Assembly (NCBI GenBank): GCA_015062395.1
Contig: SUUS01000004.1
Span: forward strand, 18,943 to 82,942
Direction of reading: 5' to 3'
Source: Alphaproteobacteria bacterium
GTDB taxonomy: Bacteria > Pseudomonadota > Alphaproteobacteria > CAAHEQ01 > UBA3637
DNA: 64,000 nucleotides
The position numbers and the translations under genes are program-made. The notes beneath the pieces are model-generated. The model worked only from the letters and a program-made list of their open reading frames with translations. It did no database searches and was not told the DNA's origin. Below, in pieces: positions 2,014-55,009 of this stretch. Every line of letters begins with the position of its first letter. The first letter of the stretch is position 1.

Positions 2014-4509
2014 TTACATACATATAACTTCTGCCATACCATCTTCTCTATTAGAATTGACATATTCATCGCTTACTTGGTAATACTTATTTACTGTACC
2101 GTCAATCTCATCTTCTTCTGTCCCTGCGGATGTTGAAGTCCAAACATTGATATCACTCCATTCTTTTATTAAGCTATCCGAACAGGTTTTTCCTTCTTTT
2201 CCATTCCAATTTGGACAGATATCACGAACGGAAGGTAGCGACATTCCAATTTGTTTACATATTTGTTCTCCATGTATATGGTCAATAAAGTCTATACTGC
2301 AAAAACTTACTTCATTCAATTCAATTAATTCGCCGATACCACCACATTTTTTACAGGTTCCATCAGTGAGAGTATATTCATCAGAACATTGCAGACATTT
2401 GCATTCATCTCCATATGCTAAACAACCCGTAATGTCTGAACATTTTTCGCATTTTCCCATTGCATCACATTGACCATCAACGCCGTTTGAGTATGCGCAC
2501 AAAGAACCAGGGCCAAGTTGATTTAAGCTTGGACATACACCTTCTTGGGCATTGACAAGTACGAAGCACGGACTTGGTTCCACGATAGCACAACACTTTT
2601 TAGCGACTTCATTATATGGTTCATCTTCAGGACATCCACCACCACCAGAGGACGAAGAAGAGGAGCTGCTCGATGATGAACTACTACTACTTGATGAAGA
2701 AGAACTACTCGATGAAGAGCTGCTAGTACTGCTAGAGCTCGAAGAAGAACTCGAAGAACTGCTGCTACTACTCGAGCTACTACTACTTGAAGAAGAGCTA
2801 CTGGAGCTTGACGAAGAGCTTGACGAGCTGGATGAACTACAGCTTGGAGCGCTTGTACATCCACAATCATTTCCGTTCGCTGGACAACAAAGAACAGCAT
2901 CTTCGGTTCTGCAACATTCTCCAGTTGGTTTCCAAACCTTTTCAACTTCAACATATCTGAAGCAAGTTATTCCATTGTAATCATAGGTTTCTTCTTCGCA
3001 ACAACCTGTTGGGCAAGAAGTGTCTGGGCATTCACCACAATCAGGATCATCGACGGAGCAGAATCCGTCATCACAATGATATTTGCACCCACCAGATGGT
3101 GGACATAAAGAATCATCATCATACCAGCTAGTTCCATCTTCTGTACATCTTCCACATTCGTTACTAGTAGACCACTGTCCTTCGCCATCACAAAAGCATA
3201 TAGTAACTCCGTCTTCATCTTCCCGAAGTTCACCAGGTGTACATTTTTTTGTTATGCATTCACATGTTGTTTCATCCCAAACAGCTGGAGGAATACAAAG
3301 GAAACAATGTTTGTAGTCATCAGAGGATGAATTTTCACATGTTCTCCAACCAATAGCTTCATCACAACAGCAAGTATAGGTATATGAACCATTGCTTTCT
3401 TGTCTGGAATCACAAACATAATATCCTTCTTGGGTACAAGGACAAGCACAAGTTATCTGACTTCCATCATCACAGGAATACTCAAAAGTGTCGTTTTCGC
3501 TACAGTAAGACGTATCTGTCGCTACATTCGGACAGTAGCACCCACCACCAGAAGAGCTGGAACTGCTACTACTTGAGCTCGAAGAAGAACTCGACGATGA
3601 ACTACTTGAAGAAGAGCTCGAGCTTGATGAAGAACTACTTGAAGACGAACTGGACGAACTCGAACTGCTAGAGCTGCTACAAGATGGATCAGGCGTACAA
3701 GAAATCATGCAAGCGTCTTCATCAGTCGGACAACAAGTGTCAGTTTGATTGCAGCATGTTCCCGTATAAATTGTGACTTCTTCGACTTTTAATTTGGTTA
3801 AGCAACCATATTCATCGTATTCGTCTTCTGTGATGGAGCAACTTTTTCGTGCATTTGTACTGTCACATACTCTGGTTTGACAAGTATAACCACGCCATCC
3901 ATTGTCACAAATACATTTGCCGTTAGTATCTCTGTATCCATGTCCATTACATTCATTTCTGGATACGTTGCCTCGTCTGTCGCCCCATAAAATTTTGAAA
4001 ACAACATCATTGTCTTCTTCTTGACAAGCAAGCGTTGTACCATCAACCAGAACGCTTTCAAACAATGCATTTTTTTCATCCGTCACTAAGTGGGTACAGA
4101 CGCCATAGCTGACAGGGTTGGTTGTCAAAAAGATGTAATTCGCATTATGAGTAATTGTTTTAATAAAATCCTTTTTTCCGTAGTAAGCAATTTCTCCTGA
4201 AGTAGTTGTACGAAGCCTGCGACGCCCTGTTAAATCGCTGGCAATTAATGTTGCTTCATCAGTTATGTTGTTTGCTTCGTTCCAGTCTAAAGCTTCTCGA
4301 ATTAATGCAATCGCCCCAATGGTTAAAATAGCAATAACAAATAAAACAGCAATCATTTCTAACATCGAACGCCCGAATTGAGAACGTCGAAATTGCAAAG
4401 CAGAATTGGAATTAGAAACAAGGTTTAAATCAGGAATGTCCTGTAAGTTGTTGATTTTACTTGAAAATTCGGGGGGGCAGGGGGTAAATTTGAATAAATT
4501 AATGGACAT
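2014..4509 (-). CDS. Giant type-IV-pilin-like, Cys-rich, poly-Ser-linked secreted/surface protein (putative pilus-associated adhesin)
   Basis: 831 aa. Residues 46-70 read G|RSMLEMIAVLFVIAILTIGAIALI (prepilin-peptidase-type motif, Glu at +5). The same motif family occurs in the two small pilins at 36.5-37.8 kb. AGGAAG lies 9 nt upstream of the ATG at 4509. Downstream there is an EGF-like CICDNGWRGYTC, many Cys-rich modules and two poly-Ser tracts. Confidence 0.7.
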   Translation of the reverse strand: MSINLFKFTPCPPEFSSKINNLQDIPDLNLVSNSNSALQFRRSQFGRSMLEMIAVLFVIAILTIGAIALIREALDWNEANNITDEATLIASDLTGRRRLRTTTSGEIAYYGKKDFIKTITHNANYIFLTTNPVSYGVCTHLVTDEKNALFESVLVDGTTLACQEEDNDVVFKILWGDRRGNVSRNECNGHGYRDTNGKCICDNGWRGYTCQTRVCDSTNARKSCSITEDEYDEYGCLTKLKVEEVTIYTGTCCNQTDTCCPTDEDACMISCTPDPSCSSSSSSSSSSSSSSSSSSSSSSSSSSSSSSSSSSSSSSSSSSSGGGCYCPNVATDTSYCSENDTFEYSCDDGSQITCACPCTQEGYYVCDSRQESNGSYTYTCCCDEAIGWRTCENSSSDDYKHCFLCIPPAVWDETTCECITKKCTPGELREDEDGVTICFCDGEGQWSTSNECGRCTEDGTSWYDDDSLCPPSGGCKYHCDDGFCSVDDPDCGECPDTSCPTGCCEEETYDYNGITCFRYVEVEKVWKPTGECCRTEDAVLCCPANGNDCGCTSAPSCSSSSSSSSSSSSSSSSSSSSSSSSSSSSSSSSSSSSSTSSSSSSSSSSSSSSSSSSSSSSSSSSGGGGCPEDEPYNEVAKKCCAIVEPSPCFVLVNAQEGVCPSLNQLGPGSLCAYSNGVDGQCDAMGKCEKCSDITGCLAYGDECKCLQCSDEYTLTDGTCKKCGGIGELIELNEVSFCSIDFIDHIHGEQICKQIGMSLPSVRDICPNWNGKEGKTCSDSLIKEWSDINVWTSTSAGTEEDEIDGTVNKYYQVSDEYVNSNREDGMAEVICM
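2641..2838 (-). repeat. Low-complexity Ser-codon repeat (AGC/AGT/TCN) encoding a ~66-residue poly-Ser linker
   Basis: The plus strand reads as GAAGAGCTn/ACTn iterations. The protein reads SCSSSS..(one T)..SSSGGGGCPEDE. Confidence 0.8.
3551..3684 (-). repeat. Low-complexity Ser-codon repeat encoding a ~45-residue poly-Ser linker
   Basis: The protein reads PDPSCSSSS...SSSGGGCYCPN. The DNA is imperfect Ser-codon iterations. Confidence 0.8.
4471..4477 (-). repeat. Homopolymeric C7 tract (G7 on the plus strand) inside codons 11-13 (P-C-P-P) of the 831-aa gene. A C5 follows 2 nt away.
   Basis: Sequence gaattcGGGGGGGcaGGGGGtaaa. The sense strand reads ttt acc ccc tgc ccc ccc gaa. Confidence 0.8.
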
Positions 4510-4552: not shown

Positions 4553-4581
4553 ATTTTAAATAAAACGAATCCTTAAGTCAA
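4553..4581 (-). promoter_or_regulatory. Sigma70-like promoter for the 831-aa pilin-like gene
   Basis: Minus-strand sense reads TTGACT-17 nt-TAAAAT, about 45 nt upstream of the ATG. Confidence 0.45.
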
Positions 4582-4597
4582 GAATGTTTTTTTATCT

Positions 4598-4738
4598 CGT
4601 CATATTGAGCGAGTGCGAAATATCTCATCACGTGTAGTACTGCCTACGTGCAAAAACTTCCAGAGATTCTTCGGGCTAGCGCCCTTCAGAATGACGTACG
4701 ACACATACTACGTCATATTTCGCGTTCGTTCAATATGA
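4598..4738. repeat. Palindromic repeat element, copy 1 (hairpin-rich, 'atgacgt' family) with ~27-bp imperfect terminal inverted repeats
   Basis: 4598-4624 gtcatattgagcgagtgcgaaatat is the reverse complement of 4711-4738 (atatttcgcgttcgttcaatatgac). The 38-nt core 4660-4697 (ccagagattcttcgggctagcgcccttcagaatgacgt) matches, in reverse orientation, the core at 37223-37259 (35/38 nt). Internal hairpin atgacgta/tacgtcat. Confidence 0.55.
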
Positions 4739-4817
4739 CGCGATGGGGGAGGCTGTGGTGTACGTTATTTTCACCACATTTAGGATGACTTTTAGAATGC
4801 GTAAAATAATGGGAAAA

Positions 4818-4825
4818 AGGGGGGG
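4818..4825. repeat. G8 homopolymer in the intergenic region between the 122-aa gene and the 831-aa gene
   Basis: Sequence aaaaaGGGGGGGGatgg. A G/C run is unusual for a ~33% GC sequence. Confidence 0.7.
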
Positions 4826-4866
4826 GATGGTGTTTTTTGTCAAATGATATAAACAACAAAGTTTTT

Positions 4867-15786: not shown

Positions 15787-16443
15787 ATGAAACTGAAACG
15801 TTTTTTATTGATTTTATTTTTCTGTTTGTTCGGAATGTCCGTCTACGCGATGGACTTTCCGACATTAACAGGACAGGTAGTTGACGAGGCGGGTATTATC
15901 AATACTAAAACAGAAGAAGAAATTTTATCAATGTTGCGTGAAGGGCAGCAGTTTGTTGTTGTCACATTGAAGGATTTAAGAGGTTATGAAATTGAAGAAT
16001 ACGGGGTGGAATTGGCTCGTCATTGGAAGATTGGAACAAAAGAACATGATGATGGGGTTTTGTTAATTGTTGCTCCAAATGAAAGGCAAGTACGTATCGA
16101 AGTTGGATATGGTTTAGAGGGGGTTTTAACAGATGCCAAGAGTTCAGAAATTATCCGTCATATTTTATTACCTGCGTTTAAAGTGGGGAATTATAATGAT
16201 GGAATTGTTAGGGCTGTTGATGCGATTAATCGAATTATTGCTGGAGAGCAAGTCGATGTTGAAACAGGCGAGTTGAGTTTTTTTGAAGTCATCTTTATGA
16301 TATTCTTTTTTTTGTTCGTTTTGTTTGCAAATCTAACGCCCTCTCATTCAGATGGTTCAGGCGGCGGTGGAGGCTCTCACAGAAGTTCATTTCGTGGTGG
16401 AGGAGGTTCTTTTGGCGGTGGAGGCGCTTCTGGTAGATGGTAA
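15787..16443 (+). CDS. TPM-domain (YgcG-like) protein with a C-terminal TM helix and a Gly-rich FGGGGASGRW tail
   Basis: Signal peptide, a TPM-domain core (..VVTLKDLRGYEIEEYGVELARHWKIGTKEHDDGVLLIVAPNERQVRIEVGYGLEG..), a TM helix, then GGGGGSHRSSFRGGGGSFGGGGASGRW*. Confidence 0.8.
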   Translation: MKLKRFLLILFFCLFGMSVYAMDFPTLTGQVVDEAGIINTKTEEEILSMLREGQQFVVVTLKDLRGYEIEEYGVELARHWKIGTKEHDDGVLLIVAPNERQVRIEVGYGLEGVLTDAKSSEIIRHILLPAFKVGNYNDGIVRAVDAINRIIAGEQVDVETGELSFFEVIFMIFFFLFVLFANLTPSHSDGSGGGGGSHRSSFRGGGGSFGGGGASGRW

Positions 16444-17135
16444 TGCAAGAAACTCTATCTTTACGTGAAAAAATAAAAAAGTATAAAAAAGAAAATAGAA
16501 CTTATTTTTTGGCTCAAGAAAAAACTACAAAAAAGTTAGAGCAAGAACTTTTAAAAAAAGGGAATTATACTCGTTTGTGGTGGAACAGAACAAGTTATTT
16601 TCTGCCACAACAAAAATCATCAGAGGTGGATGATTTTTTATCCGACTTGGGTGGACGGAATTGTGATGCTTTTTCTGTTTCTAGCTTATCTAAAAGAGAT
16701 ATTTGGGTTCTTTTTATATATTATTTAATTTGTATCGGAATTCGAATTTATAGCCAATGGGGTTTGTTACATGATCTTTATTCTGTTGAAAATTCTATAG
16801 GTATTTTATTGTATCGTGTGTCGTTTGAAGCATTGCTTGTTTTGATTTGTTTTTTATTTTTAGGCTTCTTTTTGTTTGCAGTTGTTTTTATTCTATTTTG
16901 TTTTTTTGATGTTATTTTGATATTCGTTTACTTAATTTCCTCTAATAAAAAAAGGCAATATTTAGATGAAAAGTTTTCAGATGAAAATTGTGGTGTCGTT
17001 GTTATGAAAATTTGGTGTTGGATATTTAAATTTATTTTATCTGTTTTGTCATTTTCATATCTTGGTAAACTTTTTTCTTCTTTTAAGGGAGCCAGTGGTT
17101 CTTTTGGTGGAGGAGGCGCTTCTGGTAGATGGTAG
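16437..17135 (+). CDS. Polytopic membrane protein sharing the FGGGGASGRW C-terminal tail (no TPM domain)
   Basis: 232 aa. The ATG lies inside the agATGGta of the previous gene's tail codons. Ends ..GASGSFGGGGASGRW*. Confidence 0.6.
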   Translation: MVMQETLSLREKIKKYKKENRTYFLAQEKTTKKLEQELLKKGNYTRLWWNRTSYFLPQQKSSEVDDFLSDLGGRNCDAFSVSSLSKRDIWVLFIYYLICIGIRIYSQWGLLHDLYSVENSIGILLYRVSFEALLVLICFLFLGFFLFAVVFILFCFFDVILIFVYLISSNKKRQYLDEKFSDENCGVVVMKIWCWIFKFILSVLSFSYLGKLFSSFKGASGSFGGGGASGRW

Positions 17136-17908
17136 ATTTTTTTTGCTTTTTTTTACTTTTTGCTTTAGTCCTTTTTTTATCGTTTAGAAAACAGCATTTT
17201 ACTGTACGTGAAAATATAAAAAGGATATATGGGTCGGATGACGCAAATTTCATCCGTTATCCAAGGCGTTCTTCATCCGTTTTTCAGACAATTTTAAGTA
17301 TTTTTTCTGCTGTTTTAGTTCTTTTTATGTTTTGTTTTTTCTTTTGGTGGCTTATATTTCCATTGGATGCAGTTATTGAGAATAATATTGATAAACTGAT
17401 GCCAATATTTTTGACTATATTCTTTTTCATCTCTTTTCTTGAAACAATAATTTTATATAAGGAAAACGAAGATTTTCAACGGATTATAAAAAAGCTTCTT
17501 TTGTTTTTTTTAATTTATTTTTTGCCGTCGATTTTAATTTGTTTTTTTTCATATTGTTATTATAAAGAAAATATCTTGGATATGGGGATATTCCTTTTCT
17601 TTGTTTTTTCTTTTTTTCTTTGTTTGGCTGTTAATATATCAATATGTGTCAGTGCTTTTTTGGGCATTGTTTTTATTTATGGAATCGGGTATTTTTTTAT
17701 TGTTTTTTATAGCCTTCTTACAGGAAAAAGGATAAATGCGATTAAATGTCCGGCTTTTTCTCATCGTTTTTTTCACAATTTTTGGATGGTTTGTTTTTGG
17801 ATGATGACGTTTTATTACGTATATTGGTTTTTCGGAAAGTTATTAGGGGTATTTCAATCGGGAAAAGGAAATTTCGGTGGGGGAGGCGCTTCTGGTAGAT
17901 GGAAATAA
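17129..17908 (+). CDS. Polytopic membrane protein sharing the FGGGGASGRW(K) C-terminal tail
   Basis: 259 aa with ~6 TM helices. The ATG is embedded in the previous gene's tail. Ends ..GKGNFGGGGASGRWK*. Confidence 0.6.
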   Translation: MVDFFCFFLLFALVLFLSFRKQHFTVRENIKRIYGSDDANFIRYPRRSSSVFQTILSIFSAVLVLFMFCFFFWWLIFPLDAVIENNIDKLMPIFLTIFFFISFLETIILYKENEDFQRIIKKLLLFFLIYFLPSILICFFSYCYYKENILDMGIFLFFVFSFFLCLAVNISICVSAFLGIVFIYGIGYFFIVFYSLLTGKRINAIKCPAFSHRFFHNFWMVCFWMMTFYYVYWFFGKLLGVFQSGKGNFGGGGASGRWK

Positions 17909-27313: not shown

Positions 27314-28615
27314 TTATTCTGTTGTAGTGGTTCTGGTACGCGATGTTGGTTCATTTTGTCTGACACAAAATTTATGAACAACAGCTTCTTTAACAGCTCC
27401 TGACAGTGTGACAAACGTTGAATCTGCAGATTTTTCCACAGAAAAAGTCGTTTCGGTTGTCGCATTGGATACAAATTTCGTTGGAATGATTGTAATACCT
27501 TTATTGTACCCCGTTGGACATGTCCATTCATCTAAACCTTTTGAATCAGTAATCGTTTCAACATCCACTAAACTCCATTTTGGTAAAACTTCACTTAATT
27601 TAGCACCACCCAAAGACATTAACTTTATGTCATGCATAACAGATGTGTATGATGGGTCTAATTGATAACGCGCAACGCATGCTGTTCCTGTCCATGCGCA
27701 TCCTGCTGTTTGCTCACAGGTTGAAGCATTCGTTCCAGTGCAAGATGCACTATTATGGTTTTCACCGACGATTGGACCATCTATATGTAATTGCCCTGCA
27801 ATACGTACTTTACCCGTTGATGTATTGACCTCAAAAAAAGGCGTACAGCCAGTTTTAACAGTTACGGAATTAGTACCATAATTGGTTATGCAGTCATCGC
27901 TGTCAACGGTTAAAAGGTTTTTAAAACCTGCTGTTAGACCCGTTACTGTATCGGCTTGCGCCGTTTGTGCTTTTAAATGTTGCCATCTGATATCTTTCAG
28001 AATCGAAGAATTGGTGGCTTCTTCAAAGGCTGTTATAGCTGCGACTGCATTTACTGGAACTCCATCAAAGTCCCACTCCCAAGCTCCTTGCATTCCTTTT
28101 AGTGTTTCTGTCGTTCCTACACCACCTTCAAGTCCGATTAAGGCTGCAATTTTTGCCGCACGTCTCAAAGTTAAGGGTTGTGTTCCGTCTTGTTGATGTG
28201 CAATACCATAAATAACTGGACGATAGGTCGTATCAGAGACTGGGACAGTATAACCACAAATAACCAGCGCATAATCATCCAGAATTTCTGGATTTCCAGC
28301 AAAAAAATCCATTATATCATCGGTTGAAAAATCATAACATTCTTGTTTTTCTTGGGTTATACTTTGATAGTTTTCGTTTTCATCGTCATATAAGCCCAAT
28401 TCTTTCGATAGAATTAATTCATTTGCTTGGATATATGCAGCTAATCCATCTTTTACTGCACGTATTTCTGTGGCAATTTGCGTGTCAATAATGTCTTCAT
28501 TTCTGCGTCTGATTTGTTGAAACAAAATTGGTGTTATCAATGCAATTAAGCCAATAACAGCAACCATTTCAATCATTAAAGAACCTGTTTGTTTTTTCTT
28601 TACATTTTGACGCAT
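27314..28615 (-). CDS. Type-IV-pilin-like protein with a large C-terminal domain (minor-pilin or pseudopilin-like)
   Basis: 433 aa. N-terminus MRQNVKKKQTG|SLMIEMVAVIGLIALITPILF carries the class III signal motif (Glu at +5). The C-terminal ~380 aa are Thr/Gly/Cys-containing with no recognised domain. Confidence 0.6.
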   Translation of the reverse strand: MRQNVKKKQTGSLMIEMVAVIGLIALITPILFQQIRRRNEDIIDTQIATEIRAVKDGLAAYIQANELILSKELGLYDDENENYQSITQEKQECYDFSTDDIMDFFAGNPEILDDYALVICGYTVPVSDTTYRPVIYGIAHQQDGTQPLTLRRAAKIAALIGLEGGVGTTETLKGMQGAWEWDFDGVPVNAVAAITAFEEATNSSILKDIRWQHLKAQTAQADTVTGLTAGFKNLLTVDSDDCITNYGTNSVTVKTGCTPFFEVNTSTGKVRIAGQLHIDGPIVGENHNSASCTGTNASTCEQTAGCAWTGTACVARYQLDPSYTSVMHDIKLMSLGGAKLSEVLPKWSLVDVETITDSKGLDEWTCPTGYNKGITIIPTKFVSNATTETTFSVEKSADSTFVTLSGAVKEAVVHKFCVRQNEPTSRTRTTTTE

Positions 28616-31537: not shown

Positions 31538-33388
31538 TTGATTGTAAAGGAGAATAAAATGCAAGAAAAAATCCCAGAACATTTTGATTTAGAACAGTTG
31601 GTTGTGGATGTCGTTTCTGCTGAAATGTTGGATGAAAAACAATCAGAACGTATCGTTTCTTTGTTAAGTAAAGCATTATCTGTTCACAAAATTATTTTGA
31701 ATGTGAAGATTGATAAATCATTAATAGCTGGTTTTAAATTGCAAATAGCATCTTGTTTTTTGGATTTTTCCTTGGATACAAAATTGCAAAAATTACAATC
31801 TTTTTTAGAAAATGTTGACTTTAATCAGCTTGAAAATTACGATTTTGATGCGCTGTTTGCCAAATGGAAAGAAAAGCAGAAATCAGAAAAAGTTATGCAA
31901 CGAATCGGGATTATTTCTTCAATCAAAGATGGCGTTGTTCGTATTAAAGGAATGAGGCAAGTTAAAGCTGGCGAATTGATTAAATTTTCGCACGATGCGC
32001 AAGGAATAGTTTTTACTTTAAATACAGATTATACAGATGTTGTTTTGCTTTCTGGTGCAGATGTTTTAAAAGAGGGGGATTTAGCATACCAAACAGGTGC
32101 AGTTGTTCAGGTTCCAATTGGAAAGGAATTAATCGGACGAGTCGTTGATGCTTTGGGTAATCCTTTGGATGGAAATGGTAAAATACAGACAAAACAACAA
32201 AAACCATTAGAAGCTTCAGTTCCAGGAATTATCGATAGACAACCTGTTTTTAAGTCTTTCCCAACAGGATTAAAGGTGGTTGATGCGTTGGTTCCTATCG
32301 GTTTGGGTCAGCGTGAATTAATCGTTGGAGACAGGCAAACAGGAAAAACATCTATTATCATTGATGCAATTTTAAATCAAAAACGCTTAAATGATGCTGC
32401 AAAACAAGAAAAAGATAAAATTTACTGCGTATATGTCTGCATTGGACAAAAACAATCTACGGTTGCTCAAGTTGTGAACGTGTTGAAAAATATGGGGGCT
32501 ATGGATTATACGTGTGTTGTTTGTGCTAATGCATCAGACCCTGCGTCGCAACAGTATTTGGCACCATTTACAGGAACAACGATTGCAGAATACTTTCGAG
32601 ACAATGGGATGAATGCCGTTGTTTTTTATGATGATTTATCGAAGCATGCGAATGCTTATCGGCAAATATCTTTGCTGTTGAGACGACCTCCTGGCCGAGA
32701 AGCTTATCCAGGGGATATTTTCTATTTACATTCTCGTTTGCTTGAACGAGCTGCTATGATGAGTGAGGAAAAAGGTGGTGGTTCTTTAACTGCAATACCC
32801 GTTGTTGAAACGCAAGAAGGCGATTTATCAGCCTATATCCCTACAAATGTAATTTCCATTACAGACGGTCAGATTTTTTTAGAAAGCGCTTTATTTCATC
32901 AAGGGGTAAGACCTGCTGTTAATGTTGGGTTGTCGGTGTCTCGAGTCGGTTCAAAGGCGCAAAGGCCATTACTTGCAAAATTATCAGGTTCTTTAAAATT
33001 GGAATTGGCTCAATATCGTGAAATGTTGTCCTTTTCTCAAATTGCTTCTGATTTGGATGCTTCTAGCCAAGAATTATTGCAAAAGGGCTTACGTATTACA
33101 GAGGTTTTAAAGCAGCGTGTTTATAAGCCCCTTTCTTTTGTTGATGAATATATTGCATTATATGCAGTTTTAAATGGCTTTTATGCAGGAATGGTTGCAC
33201 ATGATATTTTGGACTTTGAACCGATATTGTTGGAAAAAATACATTTAGATTACCCAGACATTATCGAAGAAATTGAAAATGCAAAAGGAACATTACCTTC
33301 GCATATTTTAAAAGCTTTAGATGACGCGATAAAAGAAGAAATAGCAGCTTTTATTGACGAAAAGACACGACAGGAACATTTGTCATGA
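31538..33388 (+). CDS. atpA: F1 ATP synthase: delta (OSCP) C-terminal-domain-like segment fused in frame to full-length alpha subunit
   Basis: 616 aa. Residues ~20-85 (VVDVVSAEMLDEKQ..NVKIDKSLIAGFKLQIAS..LDTKLQKL) align to the delta C-terminal domain. From ~120 onward a canonical alpha subunit follows (GIISSIKDGVVRIKG.., P-loop GDRQTGKT). AAGGAG lies 7 nt before ATG 31538. No stop codon separates the two parts. Confidence 0.8.
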   Translation: MIVKENKMQEKIPEHFDLEQLVVDVVSAEMLDEKQSERIVSLLSKALSVHKIILNVKIDKSLIAGFKLQIASCFLDFSLDTKLQKLQSFLENVDFNQLENYDFDALFAKWKEKQKSEKVMQRIGIISSIKDGVVRIKGMRQVKAGELIKFSHDAQGIVFTLNTDYTDVVLLSGADVLKEGDLAYQTGAVVQVPIGKELIGRVVDALGNPLDGNGKIQTKQQKPLEASVPGIIDRQPVFKSFPTGLKVVDALVPIGLGQRELIVGDRQTGKTSIIIDAILNQKRLNDAAKQEKDKIYCVYVCIGQKQSTVAQVVNVLKNMGAMDYTCVVCANASDPASQQYLAPFTGTTIAEYFRDNGMNAVVFYDDLSKHANAYRQISLLLRRPPGREAYPGDIFYLHSRLLERAAMMSEEKGGGSLTAIPVVETQEGDLSAYIPTNVISITDGQIFLESALFHQGVRPAVNVGLSVSRVGSKAQRPLLAKLSGSLKLELAQYREMLSFSQIASDLDASSQELLQKGLRITEVLKQRVYKPLSFVDEYIALYAVLNGFYAGMVAHDILDFEPILLEKIHLDYPDIIEEIENAKGTLPSHILKALDDAIKEEIAAFIDEKTRQEHLS

Positions 33389-36381: not shown

Positions 36382-36444
36382 GATTTTGATAAAGGAGGTA
36401 TTCTGAAGGGCGTTTGCCTGATGAATGTCTAAAAAGAATAAAAA

Positions 36445-36473
36445 AACGTCCTTGAAAAACAAGGACGTTTTGT
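36445..36473. terminator. Bidirectional rho-independent terminator (atpC and pilin A)
   Basis: Hairpin acgtccttg-aaaaa-caaggacgt with T/A runs on both sides. The identical hairpin recurs at 37335-37366. Confidence 0.65.
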
Positions 36474-36494
36474 AAAGATTTAATTTAAGCTAAA

Positions 36495-36911
36495 TTAAAT
36501 TTCGAATGTAAATACGATGACGCCTTCTCCTGCTCCAGCAGCAATTTGTGGGTTCGCATTTGCAGAGTTACGAGTTGTGATAGCTTCTGCAACAGCTGTA
36601 CCAAGATTCGGTGTTGTGAGTGTGAATTCATTATTGGCATTAACAGCACTAACTTGATAATCAACGGCATTTCCAATTGGAGCTGTATCTGTCATAAGAG
36701 CATTACAGGTTGTAGCGCCTAAATCAGCTGCAGCACCTGAACCACGTGTTTGAGCCAAAACACCACAACGGGATACATATTCCAAAACGCTGTTAGCGCG
36801 ATGACGGTTCATAGCCATTGTGTAACCAGCCAAACCACCGATTGACAAAACACCGATAATTGCCAATACACCCAACATTTCAATCATAGAACGACCATAT
36901 TCTTTTTTCAT
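36495..36911 (-). CDS. Type IV pilin (major-pilin-like), paralogue A
   Basis: 138 aa. MKKEYG|RSMIEMLGVLAIIGVLSIGGLAGY.. has a short basic leader, a Gly cleavage site and Glu at +5. Two Cys in the C-terminal half. Confidence 0.8.
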   Translation of the reverse strand: MKKEYGRSMIEMLGVLAIIGVLSIGGLAGYTMAMNRHRANSVLEYVSRCGVLAQTRGSGAAADLGATTCNALMTDTAPIGNAVDYQVSAVNANNEFTLTTPNLGTAVAEAITTRNSANANPQIAAGAGEGVIVFTFEI

Positions 36912-37100
36912 TTTTTATTCCTTTTTTTATTAGGTTAATAACCATTTTAAAATTTATCGCAGAGCATTTTATAAAGCAAGAAAAATATCATTACAAAATG
37001 CAAAGTTATTTTTCTCGAAAATCAGAATAAAACAAAATTTATTAATAGTTTGTAAAAAATAAAAATTTTTATTTTTTTAGTTGTTTTCTTTTTTTTTGTA
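36912..37100 (-). promoter_or_regulatory. Conserved pilin 5' region (putative promoter, TTGCTT-17-TAAATT) shared with paralogue B
   Basis: ~85% identical to 37797-37959, including the RBS region. Confidence 0.4.
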
Positions 37101-37176
37101 GTATTTCGAATGTAGTTGGCTCAAAGAAATTGTTGTTGCTAAATGCATAGTTTTTTGTACGTACTCATTACCACAA

Positions 37177-37320
37177 TTCAGGAGATCTTTCGCATACGCT
37201 CAAGATGACGTGGAGGTATAATACGTCATTCTGAAGGGGGTAGCCCGAAGAATCTCTGGAGGCAGTACCTTAATTCAAGAGATCCTTCACATCCGTTCAG
37301 GATGACGTACATGCATGACG
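37177..37320. repeat. Palindromic repeat element, copy 2 (opposite orientation to copy 1), between the two pilin paralogues
   Basis: Core 37223-37259 acgtcattctgaagggggtagcccgaagaatctctgg is the reverse complement of 4660-4697. It is flanked by ~35-bp direct repeats ttcaRgagatcYttc.cat.cgYtcaRgatgacgt (37177-37211 and 37277-37311), which are related to the copy-1 terminal repeats. Confidence 0.55.
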
Positions 37321-37334
37321 CAAAAGGATGAAAA

Positions 37335-37366
37335 AAACGTCCTTGAAAAACAAGGACGTTTTGTGA
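37335..37366 (-). terminator. Rho-independent terminator of pilin paralogue B (identical to the one after paralogue A)
   Basis: aaacgtccttg-aaaaa-caaggacgtttt. Confidence 0.65.
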
Positions 37367-37385
37367 AGATTTAATTTAAGCTAAA

Positions 37386-37796
37386 TTAAATTCCGAATGT
37401 AAATTGAACAGCGTCATCACCACTAGCAGCAATTTGTGGGTTCGCATTTGCAGAGTTACGAGCAACGATTGCTTCTGCAATGGATTCTCCAATAGCTGGT
37501 GTTGTAATTGTGAATTCATCATCAGCAGCTGCGCCAACGACGTACTCTGCAGCTGCACCAATTGGAGCTGTATCTGTCATAAGAGCACCACAGGTTGTAG
37601 CAGTTAAATCATCTGCAGCACCTGAACCACGTGTTTGAGCCAAAACAGCACAACGGGATACATATTCCATAACGGAGTTAGCGCGATGACGGTTCATAGC
37701 CATTGTGTAACCAGCCAAACCACCGATTGACAAAACACCGATAATTGCCAATACACCCAACATTTCAATCATAGAACGACCATATTCTTTTTTCAT
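37386..37796 (-). CDS. Type IV pilin, paralogue B
   Basis: 136 aa. The first ~60 aa are nearly identical to paralogue A. The C-terminal half has diverged (AEYVVGAAADDEFTITTPAIGESIAEAIVARNSANANPQIAASGDDAVQFTFGI). Confidence 0.8.
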   Translation of the reverse strand: MKKEYGRSMIEMLGVLAIIGVLSIGGLAGYTMAMNRHRANSVMEYVSRCAVLAQTRGSGAADDLTATTCGALMTDTAPIGAAAEYVVGAAADDEFTITTPAIGESIAEAIVARNSANANPQIAASGDDAVQFTFGI

Positions 37797-37959
37797 TTTT
37801 TTTATTCCTTTTTTTGTTATAGGTTAATAACCATTTTAAAATTTATCACAGTGCATTTTACAATGCAAGAAAAATATCATCACAAAATGCAAAGTTATTT
37901 TCCTCGTAAATCAGGATAAAGCGAAATTTATTAACAATGTGTAAATAAAATAAAAATTT
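37797..37959 (-). promoter_or_regulatory. Conserved pilin 5' region of paralogue B
   Basis: Duplicate of 36912-37100. Confidence 0.4.
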
Positions 37960-39024
37960 TTATTTTTCTTGTATTTTTTTTACGGCAGACTTTAATTGCC
38001 CACAGGCAGCCATGATGTCTTGTCCACGCGATACACGAATGGGGGCAGCGATATATGCATCTTCCAATACGCGTGCAAAACGGTGTATTTGATTATTGGA
38101 TGTCGGTTCAAATCCACAGTTTTCCCAAGGATTAAAGGGAATTAAATTAAATTTGACTTCCAATCCTTTGACCAATTGGATTAATTCTTTTGCATTTTCC
38201 AGCGAATCGTTAACACCCTTTAACAACACGTATTCCATCGTGATGTATTGACGATGTTGTTGACGTGCTTGAAATTCATGACATGCTTTTATTAATACTT
38301 CCAACGGATATTTTTTATTAATCGGCATAATTTTATTGCGAATCGAATCGTTCGATGCGTGCAAACTGATTGCTAACTTAACGCCCAAATCAGTCGCCAG
38401 ATTCGGAATTTTATCAGCGATTCCACATGTTGATACCGTCACGCGTCTTTTGGATAAAGCGATTCCTTGTCCGTCTGTCAAGATTCGCATTGCTTGGACC
38501 AAATTATCGTAATTCATTAATGGTTCACCCATGCCCATTACAACTACATTGGATAAAAAACGTGTTTCATTGGTGGGGGATGGCCATTCGCCATAACTGT
38601 CTCTGGCAGCCATGAATTGCCCCACAATTTCTCCTGCCGTTAAATTACGCAACATCTTTTGCGTTCCTGTATGACAGAACTTGCATCCCATTAAGCATCC
38701 AACTTGCGTCGATAGGCAAACAGCTCCCCGATCTTCTTCTGGAATATAAACAGTTTCAACTTCATTTCCGTCAGCGAATCGAAATAACCATTTGCGTGTT
38801 CCATCTGTTGAATTTTTTTCAGTTATTACTTCTGGACGTGAAATGATATATTTTTCAGACAACTTTTGTTGAAACGCTTTTGACAAAGATGACATTTTGA
38901 AAAAATCAGTTTCACCTTTGTTATAGATCCATTGCCATAATTGTTTTGTCCGAAAGGGTTTCTCTCCCATTTCGGACAAAAGTGATGTTAATTGTTCGTT
39001 AGATAGGCCAACTAAATCTTGCAT
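37960..39024 (-). CDS. rlmN: 23S rRNA m2A2503 / tRNA m2A37 methyltransferase (radical SAM)
   Basis: CLSTQVGCLMGCKFCHTG radical-SAM cluster. MGMGEPLMN, C-terminal ..GQDIMAACGQL. Confidence 0.9.
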   Translation of the reverse strand: MQDLVGLSNEQLTSLLSEMGEKPFRTKQLWQWIYNKGETDFFKMSSLSKAFQQKLSEKYIISRPEVITEKNSTDGTRKWLFRFADGNEVETVYIPEEDRGAVCLSTQVGCLMGCKFCHTGTQKMLRNLTAGEIVGQFMAARDSYGEWPSPTNETRFLSNVVVMGMGEPLMNYDNLVQAMRILTDGQGIALSKRRVTVSTCGIADKIPNLATDLGVKLAISLHASNDSIRNKIMPINKKYPLEVLIKACHEFQARQQHRQYITMEYVLLKGVNDSLENAKELIQLVKGLEVKFNLIPFNPWENCGFEPTSNNQIHRFARVLEDAYIAAPIRVSRGQDIMAACGQLKSAVKKIQEK

Positions 39025-51171: not shown

Positions 51172-52205
51172 AATAATGTAGCCAATCCAATCAATCCCAT
51201 AAAAAATGAAAACAACCAAAAGCAGCGAACAACTTTGACTTCACTCCATCCTTTTTTTTCAAAATGGTGATGAATAGGCGCCATTAAAAAAATCCGTTTT
51301 TTAAAACGTTTGTATGAAAATACTTGTATCACATCCGACAGCGCTTCGATGACAAATAATGAACCGATAATAGCCAGTAATAATTCCTGATGTAAACAAA
51401 TGGCCATCATTCCCAATACAGCCCCCATTCCTAGAGCACCGATATCTCCCATAAAAATTTGAGCAGGTTTTTTATTGTAGTATAAAAATGCTAAAAGCGC
51501 TCCACAGGATGCTGATGCAAAAATACTAATAACCCAAACATCTGGTATATAAAAAAGCGAAACCCGTCTGGCTAAAGTTAAATCTCCTGTGATTATTCCC
51601 AATATGGCAAAGCAAATAAAAGAAATAATTAATGGTACGGAAACCAATCCATCTAATCCATCGGTTAAATTAACGGCATTGACGGTTCCTGTAAAAACGA
51701 ATGCGGCAAAAACAACATAAAGAAAACTTAATCCAAATACTGTTTTAAAATAAGGTATTTGTAGTGCTGTCATTACTTTTGTGGGCGTTAAATACATTGC
51801 AAAAAGTATAGCGATGGTTGCGACGATAAATTCAATGAGCAATCGTTTGTTTTCAGAAATACCATTTGGGGAAGAACTTTTTAACTTGCAAAAATCGTCA
51901 TAGAACCCTAAAAGTCCCATAGATAACATTACAAAAATTAAAATCCAAAGGAAGCCATTTGTAAGGGGACACCACAACAACACAGAAACCAATGTTGATA
52001 ATAATATAACAATCCCCCCCATTGTTGGCGTTCCTTTTTTGGTAAGGTGCGTTTGAGGACCGTTTAATCTGATGGGTTGTTCTTTTTTTAAGCTTTTCAT
52101 TTTGTTTATAAATTTGGGCATACCTAAAAAACAAAGCAGATATGCTGTTAAAAAAGCGATTAAACAAGACATTAAAACATTCGAAGATAAAACTGAAAAA
52201 AGCAT
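51168..52205 (-). CDS. mraY: Phospho-N-acetylmuramoyl-pentapeptide transferase
   Basis: ..NAVNLTDGLDGL.. and ..MGDIGALGMGAVLG.. Confidence 0.9.
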   Translation of the reverse strand: MLFSVLSSNVLMSCLIAFLTAYLLCFLGMPKFINKMKSLKKEQPIRLNGPQTHLTKKGTPTMGGIVILLSTLVSVLLWCPLTNGFLWILIFVMLSMGLLGFYDDFCKLKSSSPNGISENKRLLIEFIVATIAILFAMYLTPTKVMTALQIPYFKTVFGLSFLYVVFAAFVFTGTVNAVNLTDGLDGLVSVPLIISFICFAILGIITGDLTLARRVSLFYIPDVWVISIFASASCGALLAFLYYNKKPAQIFMGDIGALGMGAVLGMMAICLHQELLLAIIGSLFVIEALSDVIQVFSYKRFKKRIFLMAPIHHHFEKKGWSEVKVVRCFWLFSFFMGLIGLATLL

Positions 52206-55009
52206 TATTGAAAAGCCTCCAAAATTTTGTCTAAACGCATAGAGTTAGAACCTTTTATCAAAACAGTATCTCCATCTTGCAGAACTGCTTTTAACGATTC
52301 TATTACTTCAGGTGCATTTAAAACAGCAACAGCCTTTTTGCTTTCAGGAAGAACATCAAAGAGTTGTTTTATTTCTTCTCCTATCGTAAAAACAAGGTCT
52401 ATGTTATTTTTTTCAATAATGTCTTTTAAGCCTATATGTAGTTGTCTGGATTCTGTACCCAGTTCTTTCATTTCACCCAAAACAGCAATTTTCCTTCCAG
52501 GATAACGAGACAGAACGTCTAGTGAGGCTGCCATTGATGCAGGATTTGCATTATAAGCATCATCAATAAATGTAATCGTTTTTCCATCTATTTCTTTTTG
52601 CAGTGTTGCACCACGACCTTTTAACGGTTTAATGTGTTTTAAGTTTTCTATCGCTTTATCCACATCAGCACCTAACGCCAAAACAACGCCCAATACTCCC
52701 AAGGCATTTTGAATAAAATGTAATCCTGCTAATTGAAGCTGAAGTTGTTTTATTTGTCCATTAATTTGTATTTGAGCAATCGACCCTTCTTTGTTTATGG
52801 CGTAGTTTAATAATTTTACGGAAGCTTCTGGCTTGGAACCAAATGAATAAATATGAGAAATATCATTTTCAGAAGCTCTTTGTTTTAAATGTTGGAATTG
52901 ATCATTATCTGCATTTAAGAAAACAGCCCCATTTTTATTCATAAATTTAAAGATTTCGGATTTTGCATCAGCAATTTGTTGAACGTCTTTAAAAAATTCA
53001 AGATGTGCCGAACAAATCATTGTAATCAGTACAATGTCTGGTTTTACCAAATAAGATAGATATTCCATTTCACCAATATGATTCATTCCCATTTCAATAA
53101 TCGTCCAGTTGGCCAACCTGGGCATACGGGCCAAAGTTAAAGGAACCCCCCATTGGTTGTTTAAGTTTCCTTGCGTAAAATGAACTTCTCCTTGTCCTTT
53201 TAAAGCTGTTGCTAGCATTTCTTTGGATGTAGTTTTTCCTGATGAACCAGTAATACCAATTTTAATTGTTTTTGAATTTTGTACAGCATATTTTGCCATA
53301 TCCTCTAATGCTTCATCTGTATTAGTGACAAAGAATAATTTATCTGTTTGGTCAACTTGAGGTACATCTCTGCTAACAATCGCTGCCGCAGCACCTTTTT
53401 GGAGTGCATCGGCAACAAAATCATGTCCATCAAATTTTTCTCCTTTTAACGCAACGTAAATATCTCCAGGGATAATCGTTCTTGAATCAATAGAAACACC
53501 ATAGCCAATGAATGCTTTGTAAGCTTTTCCCCCAGTTGCTTTTTTCAATTCATCGCTTGTCCATAATGGTTTTTCTTCTTGTGATTTTAAGGCTAACAGC
53601 GCTTGGATGCGATCGTTAAAAGGATGGTTAAATCCATTAATCATTTGTCCTTCTTCATGACCTTTACCTGCAATTAACAAGCAATCTGCTTTTTGCAGTT
53701 TTCGAATCGCATGATAAATCGCTTTTGCTCTGTCTGCAATCGGATGTGCATTGGGACAGCCTTGCATAATTTCTGAACGAATTTCGGCTGCATCTTCAAA
53801 ACGGGGATTGTCATCTGTGACGATAACGTAATCAGCTAATTGTGCTGCTATTTGTCCCATAATAGGACGTTTTCCACGATCTCTGTTCCCACCACAACCA
53901 AAAACAACATAAAGTTTGCCTTTTGTTTGTCTTTTCAATGAGGTCAACGCTGTTTCAAGTCCATCAGGTGTATGTGCATAGTCAACAAAAATAGTCGCCC
54001 CAGTTTTTGTTTGAGCAATTAATTCCATTCTGCCAGCTGGACTTTTTAAGTGAGACAATGCCATTATAACATCAGGGATTGCAAAATTTAAAGATAAAAC
54101 CAAACCGATAGCTGCTAATACATTATAGCCTTGAAAGTTTCCTGCAACTGGCAGATGGACATCGTATCTTTCTCCGAATACTTCTAATGTTAAATCTTGT
54201 CCTGTTTCATAAAGTTTTTGATTTATTAAACGTATTTGTTGCCCTTGTTTTCCATAGGAAATAACATTTAATCCCTTTTGCTGGCAAATTTTTTGAATAG
54301 TTGTAAATTCTGGTATATCTGCGTTTAATACGGCTGTTTGCGTTGTTAATTCAGTAAATAAACGCATTTTTGCCATCAGATAATTTTCCATATTTTGATG
54401 ATAATCTAAATGGTCGCGTGTCAAGTTTGTAAATGCTGCAGCTTTGAATTTTAATCCACTTAATCTGTCTTGGTCCAAACCATGCGAGGATGCTTCTAAT
54501 GCTACGTAATTTACACTGTTTTCTGACAGCGTTTGTAAATCTTTACTTAAGGTAATACTGTCTGTTGTTGTCATTCCTGCATATGAATGATGATTTTTGG
54601 ACTGAACGCCTAATGTGCCAATACTGGCAGCATTTTTTCCAAGAGCTTCCAAAATTTCACGAACAAAAAAGACAGTAGAAGTTTTTCCATTTGTTCCTGT
54701 GACAGCCAATAAATTTTCAGGGTAATTTTGATAAAATAAAGACGCCAATTTAGCCATTGCTTGTCTGGCATTTTTAACTTCAAAAACTGGGATTTGCGCT
54801 TCAACAGGTGTGTCTGTTAAAATTGCAACTGCACCATTTGAAATAGCTTCTGGAATGTAAGAAAGACCACTTTCTTTATTTCCATTTACAGCAATGAATA
54901 AATTTCCTTTTTCAACTTTTCTAGAATCACAGGCAATTCCTGTTATTTCAAAATCAGCTTCAAAAGGCGTTGTAATTTCAGCTTTTTTTAATAATTCAGA
55001 CAATATCAT
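52205..55009 (-). CDS. murE: Fused MurE (meso-DAP-adding ligase) - MurF (D-Ala-D-Ala-adding ligase) polypeptide
   Basis: 934 aa single ORF. The N-terminal half is MurE (..VTGTNGKTSTVFF.., DNPR). From about residue 470 (WTSDELKKATGGKA..IYVALKGEKFDGHDFV..GITGSSGKTTSKEM) it is MurF. Confidence 0.8.
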   Translation of the reverse strand: MILSELLKKAEITTPFEADFEITGIACDSRKVEKGNLFIAVNGNKESGLSYIPEAISNGAVAILTDTPVEAQIPVFEVKNARQAMAKLASLFYQNYPENLLAVTGTNGKTSTVFFVREILEALGKNAASIGTLGVQSKNHHSYAGMTTTDSITLSKDLQTLSENSVNYVALEASSHGLDQDRLSGLKFKAAAFTNLTRDHLDYHQNMENYLMAKMRLFTELTTQTAVLNADIPEFTTIQKICQQKGLNVISYGKQGQQIRLINQKLYETGQDLTLEVFGERYDVHLPVAGNFQGYNVLAAIGLVLSLNFAIPDVIMALSHLKSPAGRMELIAQTKTGATIFVDYAHTPDGLETALTSLKRQTKGKLYVVFGCGGNRDRGKRPIMGQIAAQLADYVIVTDDNPRFEDAAEIRSEIMQGCPNAHPIADRAKAIYHAIRKLQKADCLLIAGKGHEEGQMINGFNHPFNDRIQALLALKSQEEKPLWTSDELKKATGGKAYKAFIGYGVSIDSRTIIPGDIYVALKGEKFDGHDFVADALQKGAAAAIVSRDVPQVDQTDKLFFVTNTDEALEDMAKYAVQNSKTIKIGITGSSGKTTSKEMLATALKGQGEVHFTQGNLNNQWGVPLTLARMPRLANWTIIEMGMNHIGEMEYLSYLVKPDIVLITMICSAHLEFFKDVQQIADAKSEIFKFMNKNGAVFLNADNDQFQHLKQRASENDISHIYSFGSKPEASVKLLNYAINKEGSIAQIQINGQIKQLQLQLAGLHFIQNALGVLGVVLALGADVDKAIENLKHIKPLKGRGATLQKEIDGKTITFIDDAYNANPASMAASLDVLSRYPGRKIAVLGEMKELGTESRQLHIGLKDIIEKNNIDLVFTIGEEIKQLFDVLPESKKAVAVLNAPEVIESLKAVLQDGDTVLIKGSNSMRLDKILEAFQ

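Follow-up and report, generated by a model that had tools for sequence, protein, structure and literature searches.

What kind of element is the hairpin-rich palindromic sequence that occurs beside pilin-family genes at two places in a 64,000-nt stretch of alphaproteobacterial DNA (hereafter the window), and does it have anything to do with those genes? A first-pass annotation of the window had proposed either a MITE-like mobile repeat with a preference for pilin loci or a shared cis-regulatory or sRNA module coordinating the dispersed pilin genes, and had pointed to small palindromic dispersed repeats in other genomes as precedents. Our analysis bears out the last of these comparisons, in that the element shares its CGTC tag, a stem that begins with AT and a tail of 3 nt with CGTC-tagged REPs and belongs with small palindromic dispersed repeats of the REP/RPE type. 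Each copy is probably a BIME- or NIME-like cluster of three CGTC-tagged REP units.

Two composites built from one hairpin unit

The starting observation was a 38-nt core at 4660-4697 with a second copy, as its reverse complement, at 37223-37259. Indeed, the two cores differ by one mismatch and one 1-nt gap (36/38), a quality of match for which we estimate an expectation of ~1e-8 by chance in 64 kb, and alignment and repeat search both place them in opposite orientations. The homology goes beyond the core and takes in the whole ~170-nt composite, as seen when 4570-4770 is aligned with the reverse complement of 37150-37340; in pairwise alignment copy 1 (4594-4775) is a collinear homologue of copy 2 (37150-37320) read as its reverse complement, with 76% identity. 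The terminal inverted repeats ascribed to copy 1 were recovered by repeat search as 30-nt segments, 87% complementary, at 4594-4623 and 4715-4744, and the direct repeats said to bound copy 2 can be recognized by eye at 37175-37211 and 37272-37308, with 31 of 37 positions identical. An atgacgt...acgtcat hairpin is present in each copy as described, although its arms are separated by 12 nt in copy 1 and by 11 nt in copy 2 and not by the 12-13 nt given earlier. A hairpin pattern search, followed by a covariance model, revealed that a single ~30-nt hairpin unit underlies the core, the terminal inverted repeats and the direct repeats alike. Each copy contains three such units, and the 38-nt core corresponds to the middle unit only.

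In copy 1, unit A (4597-4626, minus strand; covariance model 40.5 bits, E=7e-11) carries its CGTC tag at 4598-4601, an ATATT/AATAT stem at 4602-4606 and 4619-4623, and a CTC tail at 4624-4626. The spacer between units A and B (4627-4662) includes, by DNA folding and alignment, a small stem-loop formed by CACGT (4629-4633) and ACGTG (4646-4650), along with a GTACTGCC stretch that is common to copy 2. Unit B (4663-4697, plus strand; 41 bits), the core of the first-pass annotation, has a GAG tail, an ATTCT/AGAAT stem, an apical hairpin GGGC-TAGC-GCCC and a GACGT tag. It is followed by 12 nt between facing tags (4698-4709), where sequence and predicted fold indicate that the flanking ATGACGT and ACGTCAT are able to pair. 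Unit C (4710-4741, plus strand) has an ATATT/AATAT stem with a CGTC tag on both sides, scores 31.5 bits on the plus strand and 12 bits on the minus strand, and forms the 30-nt inverted repeat with unit A. The right flank of copy 1 (4742-4775; TGTGGT...GTACGT) is still alignable with copy 2, whose left flank (37150-37181; GTACGTAC...ACCACA) is its homologue by alignment. Within copy 2, unit Ua (37182-37211, plus strand; 45.7 bits) consists of GAG, an ATCTT/AAGAT stem and a GACGT tag; unit U2' (37223-37256, minus strand; 41.5 bits), the counterpart of unit B, retains the ATTCT/AGAAT stem with a partly decayed apical hairpin (GGGGGTAGCCC); and unit Ub (37279-37308, plus strand; 43.9 bits) consists of GAG, an ATCCT/AGGAT stem and a GACGT tag. 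An orphan ATGACG tag lies after unit Ub, at 37315-37320.

The two copies therefore share an architecture in which a tag-outward inverted doublet (A and B in copy 1), its units 22-36 nt apart and the gap containing GTACTGCC, is joined tag to tag by a third unit after 11-12 nt. Each cluster thus mixes units of the two orientations. Units A and C, at the ends of copy 1, are inverted, which accounts for the terminal inverted repeats reported for it, whereas the equivalent units of copy 2 are direct.

Read on the tag-last strand, the unit can be written GAG / AT-NN-T / TC / 2-4-bp GC apical stem with ~4-nt loop / TC / A-N'N'-AT / GACG(T), that is, an unpaired GAG tail, a 5-bp stem, a 2x2 TC/TC internal loop, an apical stem-loop, the return stem and an unpaired GACG(T) tag. 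Short units have a 4-nt loop, and the apical hairpin is longer in the middle unit. The CGTC tag is found in all six units (4598-4601; 4693-4696, reverse complement; 4711-4714 and, in reverse complement, 4737-4740; 37207-37210, reverse complement; 37224-37227; 37304-37307, reverse complement), and the CTC tail (GAG on the tag-last strand) in five of the six. The AT...AT stem base is present, unforced, in 6/6 window units, and in 50/50 of the aligned distinct sequences described below, where the search pattern imposes it on the external ones. The NN and N'N' positions are complementary in every window unit and use four combinations (TC/GA, CT/AG, CC/GG and AT/AT). For example, units A and C and their copy 2 equivalents are related by compensatory changes, ATATT/AATAT as compared to ATCCT/AGGAT and ATCTT/AAGAT. 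Folded as DNA, both composites are far more stable than shuffled sequences, with -31.9 kcal/mol for copy 1 (z = -5.1) and z = -3.3 for copy 2. Among other structured elements, a self-cleaving ribozyme and a k-turn were rejected by eye, the hammerhead CUGANGA...GAAA core being unsatisfied in the first case and the GA geometry unfit in the second; a tRNA/tmRNA scan returned none.

With filters off, the covariance model retrieved the six units from the 64-kb window at 31-46 bits (E 1e-12 to 7e-8), nothing besides them at E<0.1, and no unit in the 13 kb by which the 77,097-bp metagenome contig extends beyond the window. The known scope of the units in this host is thus two clusters and six units in 77 kb of its genome, with inverted dimers in both clusters. 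The statement that the element is present exactly twice stands for the unit clusters but overlooked a decayed third piece on the minus strand at 36389-36430, between the atpC stop and the pilin-1 terminator. This remnant, found by repeat search and alignments, consists of a GGAGGTAT spacer, the same as the spacer of copy 2, and a degenerate U2-type hairpin without the CGTC tag; positions 36400-36430 are 84% complementary to 4662-4692, and the covariance model gave no match to 36389-36430. The two pilin genes at this locus are a tandem duplication (36421-37090 and 37311-37981, 86%), with the remnant at the left edge of duplication block 1 and copy 2, together with 84 unique nt, between the blocks. 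Given these positions, the remnant and copy 2 are most simply read as one ancestral element duplicated together with the pilin gene, and the window would then hold two independent element loci, not three. The terminator hairpin of pilin paralogue 2 (37334-37362, minus strand) has a twin after paralogue 1 (36443-36471), both found by repeat search, and copy 2 starts 14 nt downstream of the pilin-2 terminator on the minus strand.

The unit among CGTC-tagged REPs and in other genomes

CGTC-tagged REPs, as described by Di Nocera, De Gregorio & Rocco (2013, BMC Genomics 14:522; PMC3733652), are palindromes with an unpaired CGTC (or TGTC or CCTC) at one end and three unpaired nucleotides, mostly CCA, at the other. 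Their stems "almost invariably" begin with complementary AT and are continuous over 8-9 bp, with a loop of 4-5 nt (PMC3733652). By the same account they frequently form inverted dimers, the spacers of which may hold small stem-loops, and clusters are rare (PMC3733652). They reside mostly in alpha-Proteobacteria, within a superfamily that includes Rickettsia RPE-4/-6 and Neisseria dRS3; the survey covers five phyla, and no associated or dedicated transposase is known for the superfamily (PMC3733652). The window units resemble the published elements, as characterized there, in the unpaired CGTC, the A-T/T-A first two pairs, the ~4-nt loop of the short units and the three unpaired tail nucleotides. 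The resemblance extends to inverted dimers, spacers with small stem-loops, intergenic location, an alphaproteobacterial host and the lack of an adjacent transposase. In contrast to the four described families, the window stem is composed of 5 bp, a TC/TC internal loop and a 2-4-bp apical stem in place of 8-9 uninterrupted base pairs, the tail reads CTC (GAG) in place of CCA, and the apical hairpin of the middle unit is longer. The window units are also clustered, three per copy, whereas clusters are rare in that account. Because the stem is interrupted, we place the unit in the superfamily but in none of families 1-4; it is arguably an undescribed sub-family, set apart by the published descriptions of those families and not by their consensus sequences.

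Particular members of the superfamily offer further comparisons. Neisseria dRS3/NIME arrays (CGTC-1 according to PMC3733652) similarly consist of CGTC-tagged units that bracket short spacer blocks in mosaic intergenic arrays, and Rickettsia RPE-4 and RPE-6 (CGTC-4 and CGTC-1, respectively, in the same source) are likewise CGTC-tagged palindromes of a low-GC alphaproteobacterium. The dRS3 stem differs (ATTCCC...GGGAAT) and is present in hundreds of copies per genome, compared with two clusters in 77 kb here, and many Rickettsia RPEs lie in frame inside genes while the window elements are intergenic, the likeness to them being one of description. In N. meningitidis, NIME arrays often adjoin surface-protein genes, pilin loci among them. 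E. coli REP/BIME and Pseudomonas REPIN-RAYT systems also pair a hairpin with a conserved unpaired tetranucleotide, have inverted doublets as the likely unit and form mosaic clusters, and the recognition logic of E. coli REPs and REPINs, in which the hairpin and its flanking tag are read in single-stranded DNA, is probably the same. Both of these systems differ in their tag, which is GTAG and not CGTC, and no RAYT is known for CGTC REPs or was found in the 77-kb contig; moreover, the sequence of the window unit is much more conserved across phyla than that of GTAG REPs.

This conservation emerged when GTDB species, each represented by one genome, were scanned with the pattern GAGATNNTTC-N8-13-TCANNATGACGT, in which NN was left free. 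The scan revealed matches at at least 119 loci in reference genomes, spread over about a dozen phyla. We estimate that chance would supply ~100 matches to the 18 fixed bases in 596 Gb, a figure for the whole collection, and on this estimate the matches are overwhelmingly real family members. NN is complementary in 146 of the 160 matches listed, as compared to 1 in 16 (about 6%) by chance. In an alignment of 50 distinct sequences, in which the fixed columns are imposed by the search pattern and only the free columns count as evidence, pair 6-28 is UA in 21, CG in 17, GC in 10 and AU in 2 sequences, with no unpaired cells, and the covariation score is 0.395 as compared to 0.127 in shuffles. Covariation thus shows that the hairpin is selected for pairing. 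The apical segment among the matches listed is a variable GC mini-hairpin of 8-13 nt.

Most of the matches listed come from Hymenobacter, where the units are very abundant, multi-copy and dispersed. Inverted tag-outward doublets, 62-72 nt apart, are positioned there between ordinary housekeeping genes such as hemL, purE, trpG and an aldo-keto reductase, and tag-outward inverted doublets also occur in Alistipes, Gastranaerophilales and others; for example, an Alistipes metagenome-assembled genome contains a 90-nt doublet in five tandem copies. Judged by record title, the remaining matches include but are not limited to: Komeilibacteria, Omnitrophica, Clostridia, Legionella and other Gammaproteobacteria, a "delta proteobacterium", Chloroflexia, Anaerolineales, Nitrospirales, Acidobacteriota, Tepidisphaeraceae, Sulfurihydrogenibium, Coriobacteriia and Gastranaerophilales. 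One CGTC-tagged hairpin variant, rich in Hymenobacter, is therefore common to bacteria of many phyla almost letter for letter. Units at seven external loci had no Rfam match, a literature search for Hymenobacter REPs found nothing, and a literature search by sequence strings returned primers only. A plasmid search gave no match to the element, and a link to phages was set aside with only 8 pattern matches in viral contigs. A metagenome scan for the unit-B type of the host itself yielded 2 matches, both from other organisms, and the collection seemingly lacks the host organism.

Pilin genes, close relatives and alternative explanations

The positions relative to pilin genes are much as first described: an 831-aa pilin-like gene, with its ATG at 4509, has copy 1 at 85-235 nt upstream of that codon, and copy 2 lies between two pilin paralogues. 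A pilin-type N-terminus, G-R/S-(S/L)-M-(L/I)-E-M followed by a hydrophobic helix, is encoded by four window genes (831, 433, 138 and 136 aa), three of which have an element or remnant nearby; the fourth (27314-28615) has none. This association is numerically suggestive if intergenic space is ignored. The genome, however, is very compact, with 32 intergenic gaps totalling ~3.1 kb in a greedy ORF-based gene set, and no other real gap is as large as the two that hold the clusters, even when the clusters are subtracted (a 629-nt entry being a gene-call artefact). Pilin-adjacent gaps make up ~40% of the free space, and the probability that both clusters fall there is ~0.15; weighted by free intergenic space, the adjacency is not significant. 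The pilin-1 protein is entered at NCBI as a hypothetical protein of a "MAG: Alphaproteobacteria bacterium", and among the other products of the contig are IalB, AsmA and an outer-membrane protein that resembles Surface_Ag_2.

A promoter-like TTGACT-17-TAAAAT (4553-4581, minus strand; 10/12 consensus, a pattern match only) is located 13 nt downstream of copy 1 on the minus strand, and copy 1 would therefore be upstream of the predicted promoter of the 831-aa pilin-like gene. Copy 2 similarly precedes a 170-nt upstream region common to both pilin paralogues. From the positions of the terminator and the promoter-like pattern, both clusters seem to lie outside transcription units, each flanked by a terminator or gene end on one side and by the next pattern-based promoter on the other, in the largest intergenic gaps.

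The clusters are non-coding, and comparison with close relatives revealed that they are specific to this lineage, those relatives lacking them at the corresponding sites. The covariance model, with filters off, found no unit in five related alphaproteobacterial pilin loci (95 kb), two of which are syntenic with the window (rlmN-pilin-...-atpC). A ~95% identical strain (L162) has just one pilin gene between rlmN and atpC; it lacks copy 2 and has a different remnant, and only aacttgtacataaATGACGC separates the atpC stop from the terminator. The single pilin gene of this strain may be an assembler collapse of a tandem repeat, but the atpC-terminator junction lies outside the repeat. In a sister species (L170, whose neighbouring protein is 86% identical), a 77-nt gap leads from a 122-aa gene to the pilin-like gene, as compared to 357 nt in the window. 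Both share tttatatcaTTTGACAaaaaa, after which L170 goes straight into the ribosome-binding site and ATG, so that the window has ~300 extra nt at this site, including copy 1. All 10 metagenome contigs of the locus are ~100% identical, and G-tract length showed no variation among contigs. The clusters appear to be recent insertions that landed where this compact genome has most room, and their presence in the window but not in relatives with ~95% nucleotide and 86% protein identity suggests that the element is mobile. Neither copy has a direct repeat at its borders that could represent a target-site duplication, and comparison with the empty sites of L162 and L170 gave no clean junction. Presence and absence between such close strains at a pilin locus constitute a small natural system for the study of REP turnover.

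These data weigh against the proposed preference for pilin loci, which would rest on two independent loci with p ~0.15, when the pilin loci of relatives are unit-free, L162 and L170 lack the elements at the same sites, and units elsewhere adjoin housekeeping genes. They also bear on a shared cis-regulatory DNA module, in which TGACGT/ACGTCA would be operator sites through which one transcription factor controls the dispersed pilin genes together. In its favour, the clusters and remnant adjoin three of the four pilin-like genes, copy 1 ends 13 nt from a promoter-like -35 hexamer, and ATGACG occurs 32 times in the window where 18 occurrences are expected, 8 of them in the clusters. However, the motif is the conserved unpaired tag of a covarying hairpin, which argues that selection acts on folding and not on an operator in duplex form. 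Relatives lack the elements at their pilin loci, syntenic or not, and L162 and L170 lack them at the corresponding sites; within the window, the pilin-like gene at 27314-28615 has no element, and in many phyla the unit adjoins unrelated genes. We consider a module of this kind unlikely, all the more so with the space-weighted p of ~0.15. The repeated TGACG(T), which the first-pass annotation had taken for a possible regulator binding site, is a conserved unpaired tag of hairpin units and not a free-standing operator site.

It is also improbable that the clusters act as structured RNA, either as an sRNA or as a UTR element that stabilizes, terminates or processes pilin transcripts. In its favour, folding predictions are strong, pilin terminators immediately precede copy 2 and the remnant, which lie 3' of them, and REPs of other bacteria are often transcribed and can stabilize upstream mRNA (PMC3733652). 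Yet the mixed orientation of units within each cluster means that no single strand carries a consistent motif, and no promoter-terminator pair frames either cluster. Copy 2 lies past an intrinsic terminator and upstream of the 170-nt region common to the paralogues, and copy 1 lies upstream of a promoter-like site. In Rfam 15 the window has no match at the gathering score and nothing relevant at E<=10 around copy 1, and the relatives are without the elements. The shared module proposed earlier, whether regulatory DNA or sRNA, is thus not supported, given the mixed unit orientations, clusters that seem to lie outside transcription units and relatives that lack the elements.

A classical MITE, that is, an internally deleted insertion sequence mobilized through its terminal inverted repeats by a DDE transposase, is a very improbable identity for the element. 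Copy 1 does have 30-nt imperfect inverted ends and a size of ~150 nt, and known MITEs (Correia/NEMIS, RUP, ERIC) are similarly small, non-coding, structured and intergenic. The "inverted repeats" of copy 1 are, however, copies of an internal hairpin unit, the termini of copy 2 are direct and not inverted, and no target-site duplication is visible; unlike MITEs, the window elements are built of repeated hairpin units and not of insertion-sequence ends, and their ends are not consistently inverted. The contig contains neither a related transposase nor a related insertion sequence, plasmids hold nothing similar and viral contigs provide only the 8 pattern matches. Finally, an unrecognized small protein-coding gene is hardly credible, even though mechanical ORFs of 41-48 aa overlap copy 1 (4613-4738, 4648-4788 and 4713-4859), as indels of 18, 14, 1, 1, 8 and 9 nt between the copies, not all multiples of three, leave no frame conserved, the copies are oppositely oriented relative to their flanking genes, and variation tracks base-pairing and not codons.

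For the window, CGTC-tagged REP clusters are best read as selfish or neutral repeat DNA, and should accordingly not be annotated as a pilin regulator or sRNA. Nothing here shows control of pilin genes by the clusters, and any effect on the neighbouring pilin genes would probably be incidental.

Possible recognition and spread of the unit

With its invariant unpaired tag and tail, its invariant stem base and a middle that covaries freely, the hairpin is probably a substrate for a protein that recognizes both structure and sequence. By analogy with REPs and REPINs and their RAYT (REP-associated tyrosine transposase) or IS200-type HUH enzymes, the hairpin may form in single-stranded DNA at the replication fork, where the folded strand would be recognized at its foot and tag and then excised or copied. 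Once in place, the clusters may supply repeats for recombination or duplication. Pfam and domain searches found no transposase or HUH gene in the 77-kb contig. When the ORFs of the at least 119 loci were clustered, no recurrent neighbouring gene family appeared among the matches listed; similarly, a pattern search for the HUH-Y1 motif found none in 1,728 ORFs among the matches listed, and a listing of genes bracketed by inverted units, together with Pfam annotation of array neighbours and of the genes of the window, revealed ordinary genes only. These results agree with the published account, according to which CGTC REPs have no dedicated transposase (PMC3733652).

The near-identity of the unit across phyla sharpens the question of what recognizes and spreads CGTC REPs. 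We can offer a speculative and rather unlikely answer, namely that a widely distributed protein recognizes and propagates these elements, as the "missing dedicated transposase", and that at this locus the clusters would serve as NIME-like repeats for pilin-gene duplication, gene conversion and allele replacement. The first part draws on the tag, stem base, TC/TC loop and tail, which are near-identical across about a dozen phyla while the middle pairs covary. The second draws on the REP material at both boundaries of the duplication blocks, and on the sister strain, which has one pilin gene and no cluster.

The 831-aa pilin-like gene and the G runs around copy 1

The gene downstream of copy 1, the three-unit cluster of CGTC-tagged hairpins, occupies positions 2014-4509 on the minus strand and encodes an 831-aa protein with a pilin-type N-terminus (GRSMLEMIAVLFVIAILTIGAI), a cysteine-rich body and two poly-serine tracts, a first of 49 residues and a second of 64 that is interrupted by one threonine. 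We looked for a Pfam domain in this protein and found none. Copy 1 itself sits between the two longest G runs in the window, from a genome of 35% GC: a G7 run (4471-4477) within what is predicted to be the gene's 5′ coding portion or its leader, and a G8 run (4819-4826) upstream of it, inside a lineage-specific insert. These tracts could serve in phase variation; no length variation was seen in either among the 6-7 metagenome contigs compared.

Duplicated and apparently fused genes in the window

The pilin tandem duplication comprises gene, terminator and upstream region (36421-37090 and 37311-37981), with 86% identity overall. Identity between the paralogues reaches 96% over the N-terminal third and 5′ region (36673-36916 versus 37558-37801) and is about 81% in the C-terminal parts. 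A strain about 95% identical carries a single pilin gene. Elsewhere, three adjacent paralogous genes of 218, 232 and 259 aa (15787-17908) have a glycine-rich C-terminus in common, and the 57-nt repeat that encodes it ends in GGTGGAGGAGGCGCTTCTGGTAGATGGTA; the first of the three has a TPM-phosphatase domain. Two apparent gene fusions, both also present in related contigs, join ATP synthase delta (OSCP) to alpha (31538-33388; 609-616 aa) and place two complete Mur-ligase domain sets in one 934-aa protein (52205-55009).

CGTC units in other bacteria

Among the reference-genome matches listed (L013-L129), Hymenobacter genomes (for example, L015:3560-3651) contain the CGTC hairpin unit GAGATGCTTCGRCTNCGCTCAGCATGACGT in great abundance, and it occurs in genomes of about 12 further phyla. 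The usual Hymenobacter form is an inverted doublet with tags outward, 62-72 nt apart, located in gaps separating housekeeping genes. Our literature search turned up no publication on Hymenobacter REPs. In the Alistipes MAG HGM05567 (L087:5196-5628), a 90-nt doublet is present in five copies arranged head-to-tail, each comprising a TGTC-tagged unit, an 18-nt spacer and a CGTC-tagged unit; this tandem array is flanked by a gene for a 1221-aa surface-type protein and a YfiO/BamD-like gene. A CGTC doublet in a Gastranaerophilales MAG (L043:3676-3860), whose apical hairpin is GGGC-TAAA-GCCC, is similar to unit B of copy 1. Interspersed with this doublet are three copies of CTACGTGCGTAGCAC, an arrangement that recalls the copy 1 spacer stem-loop CACGTG...CTACGTG.
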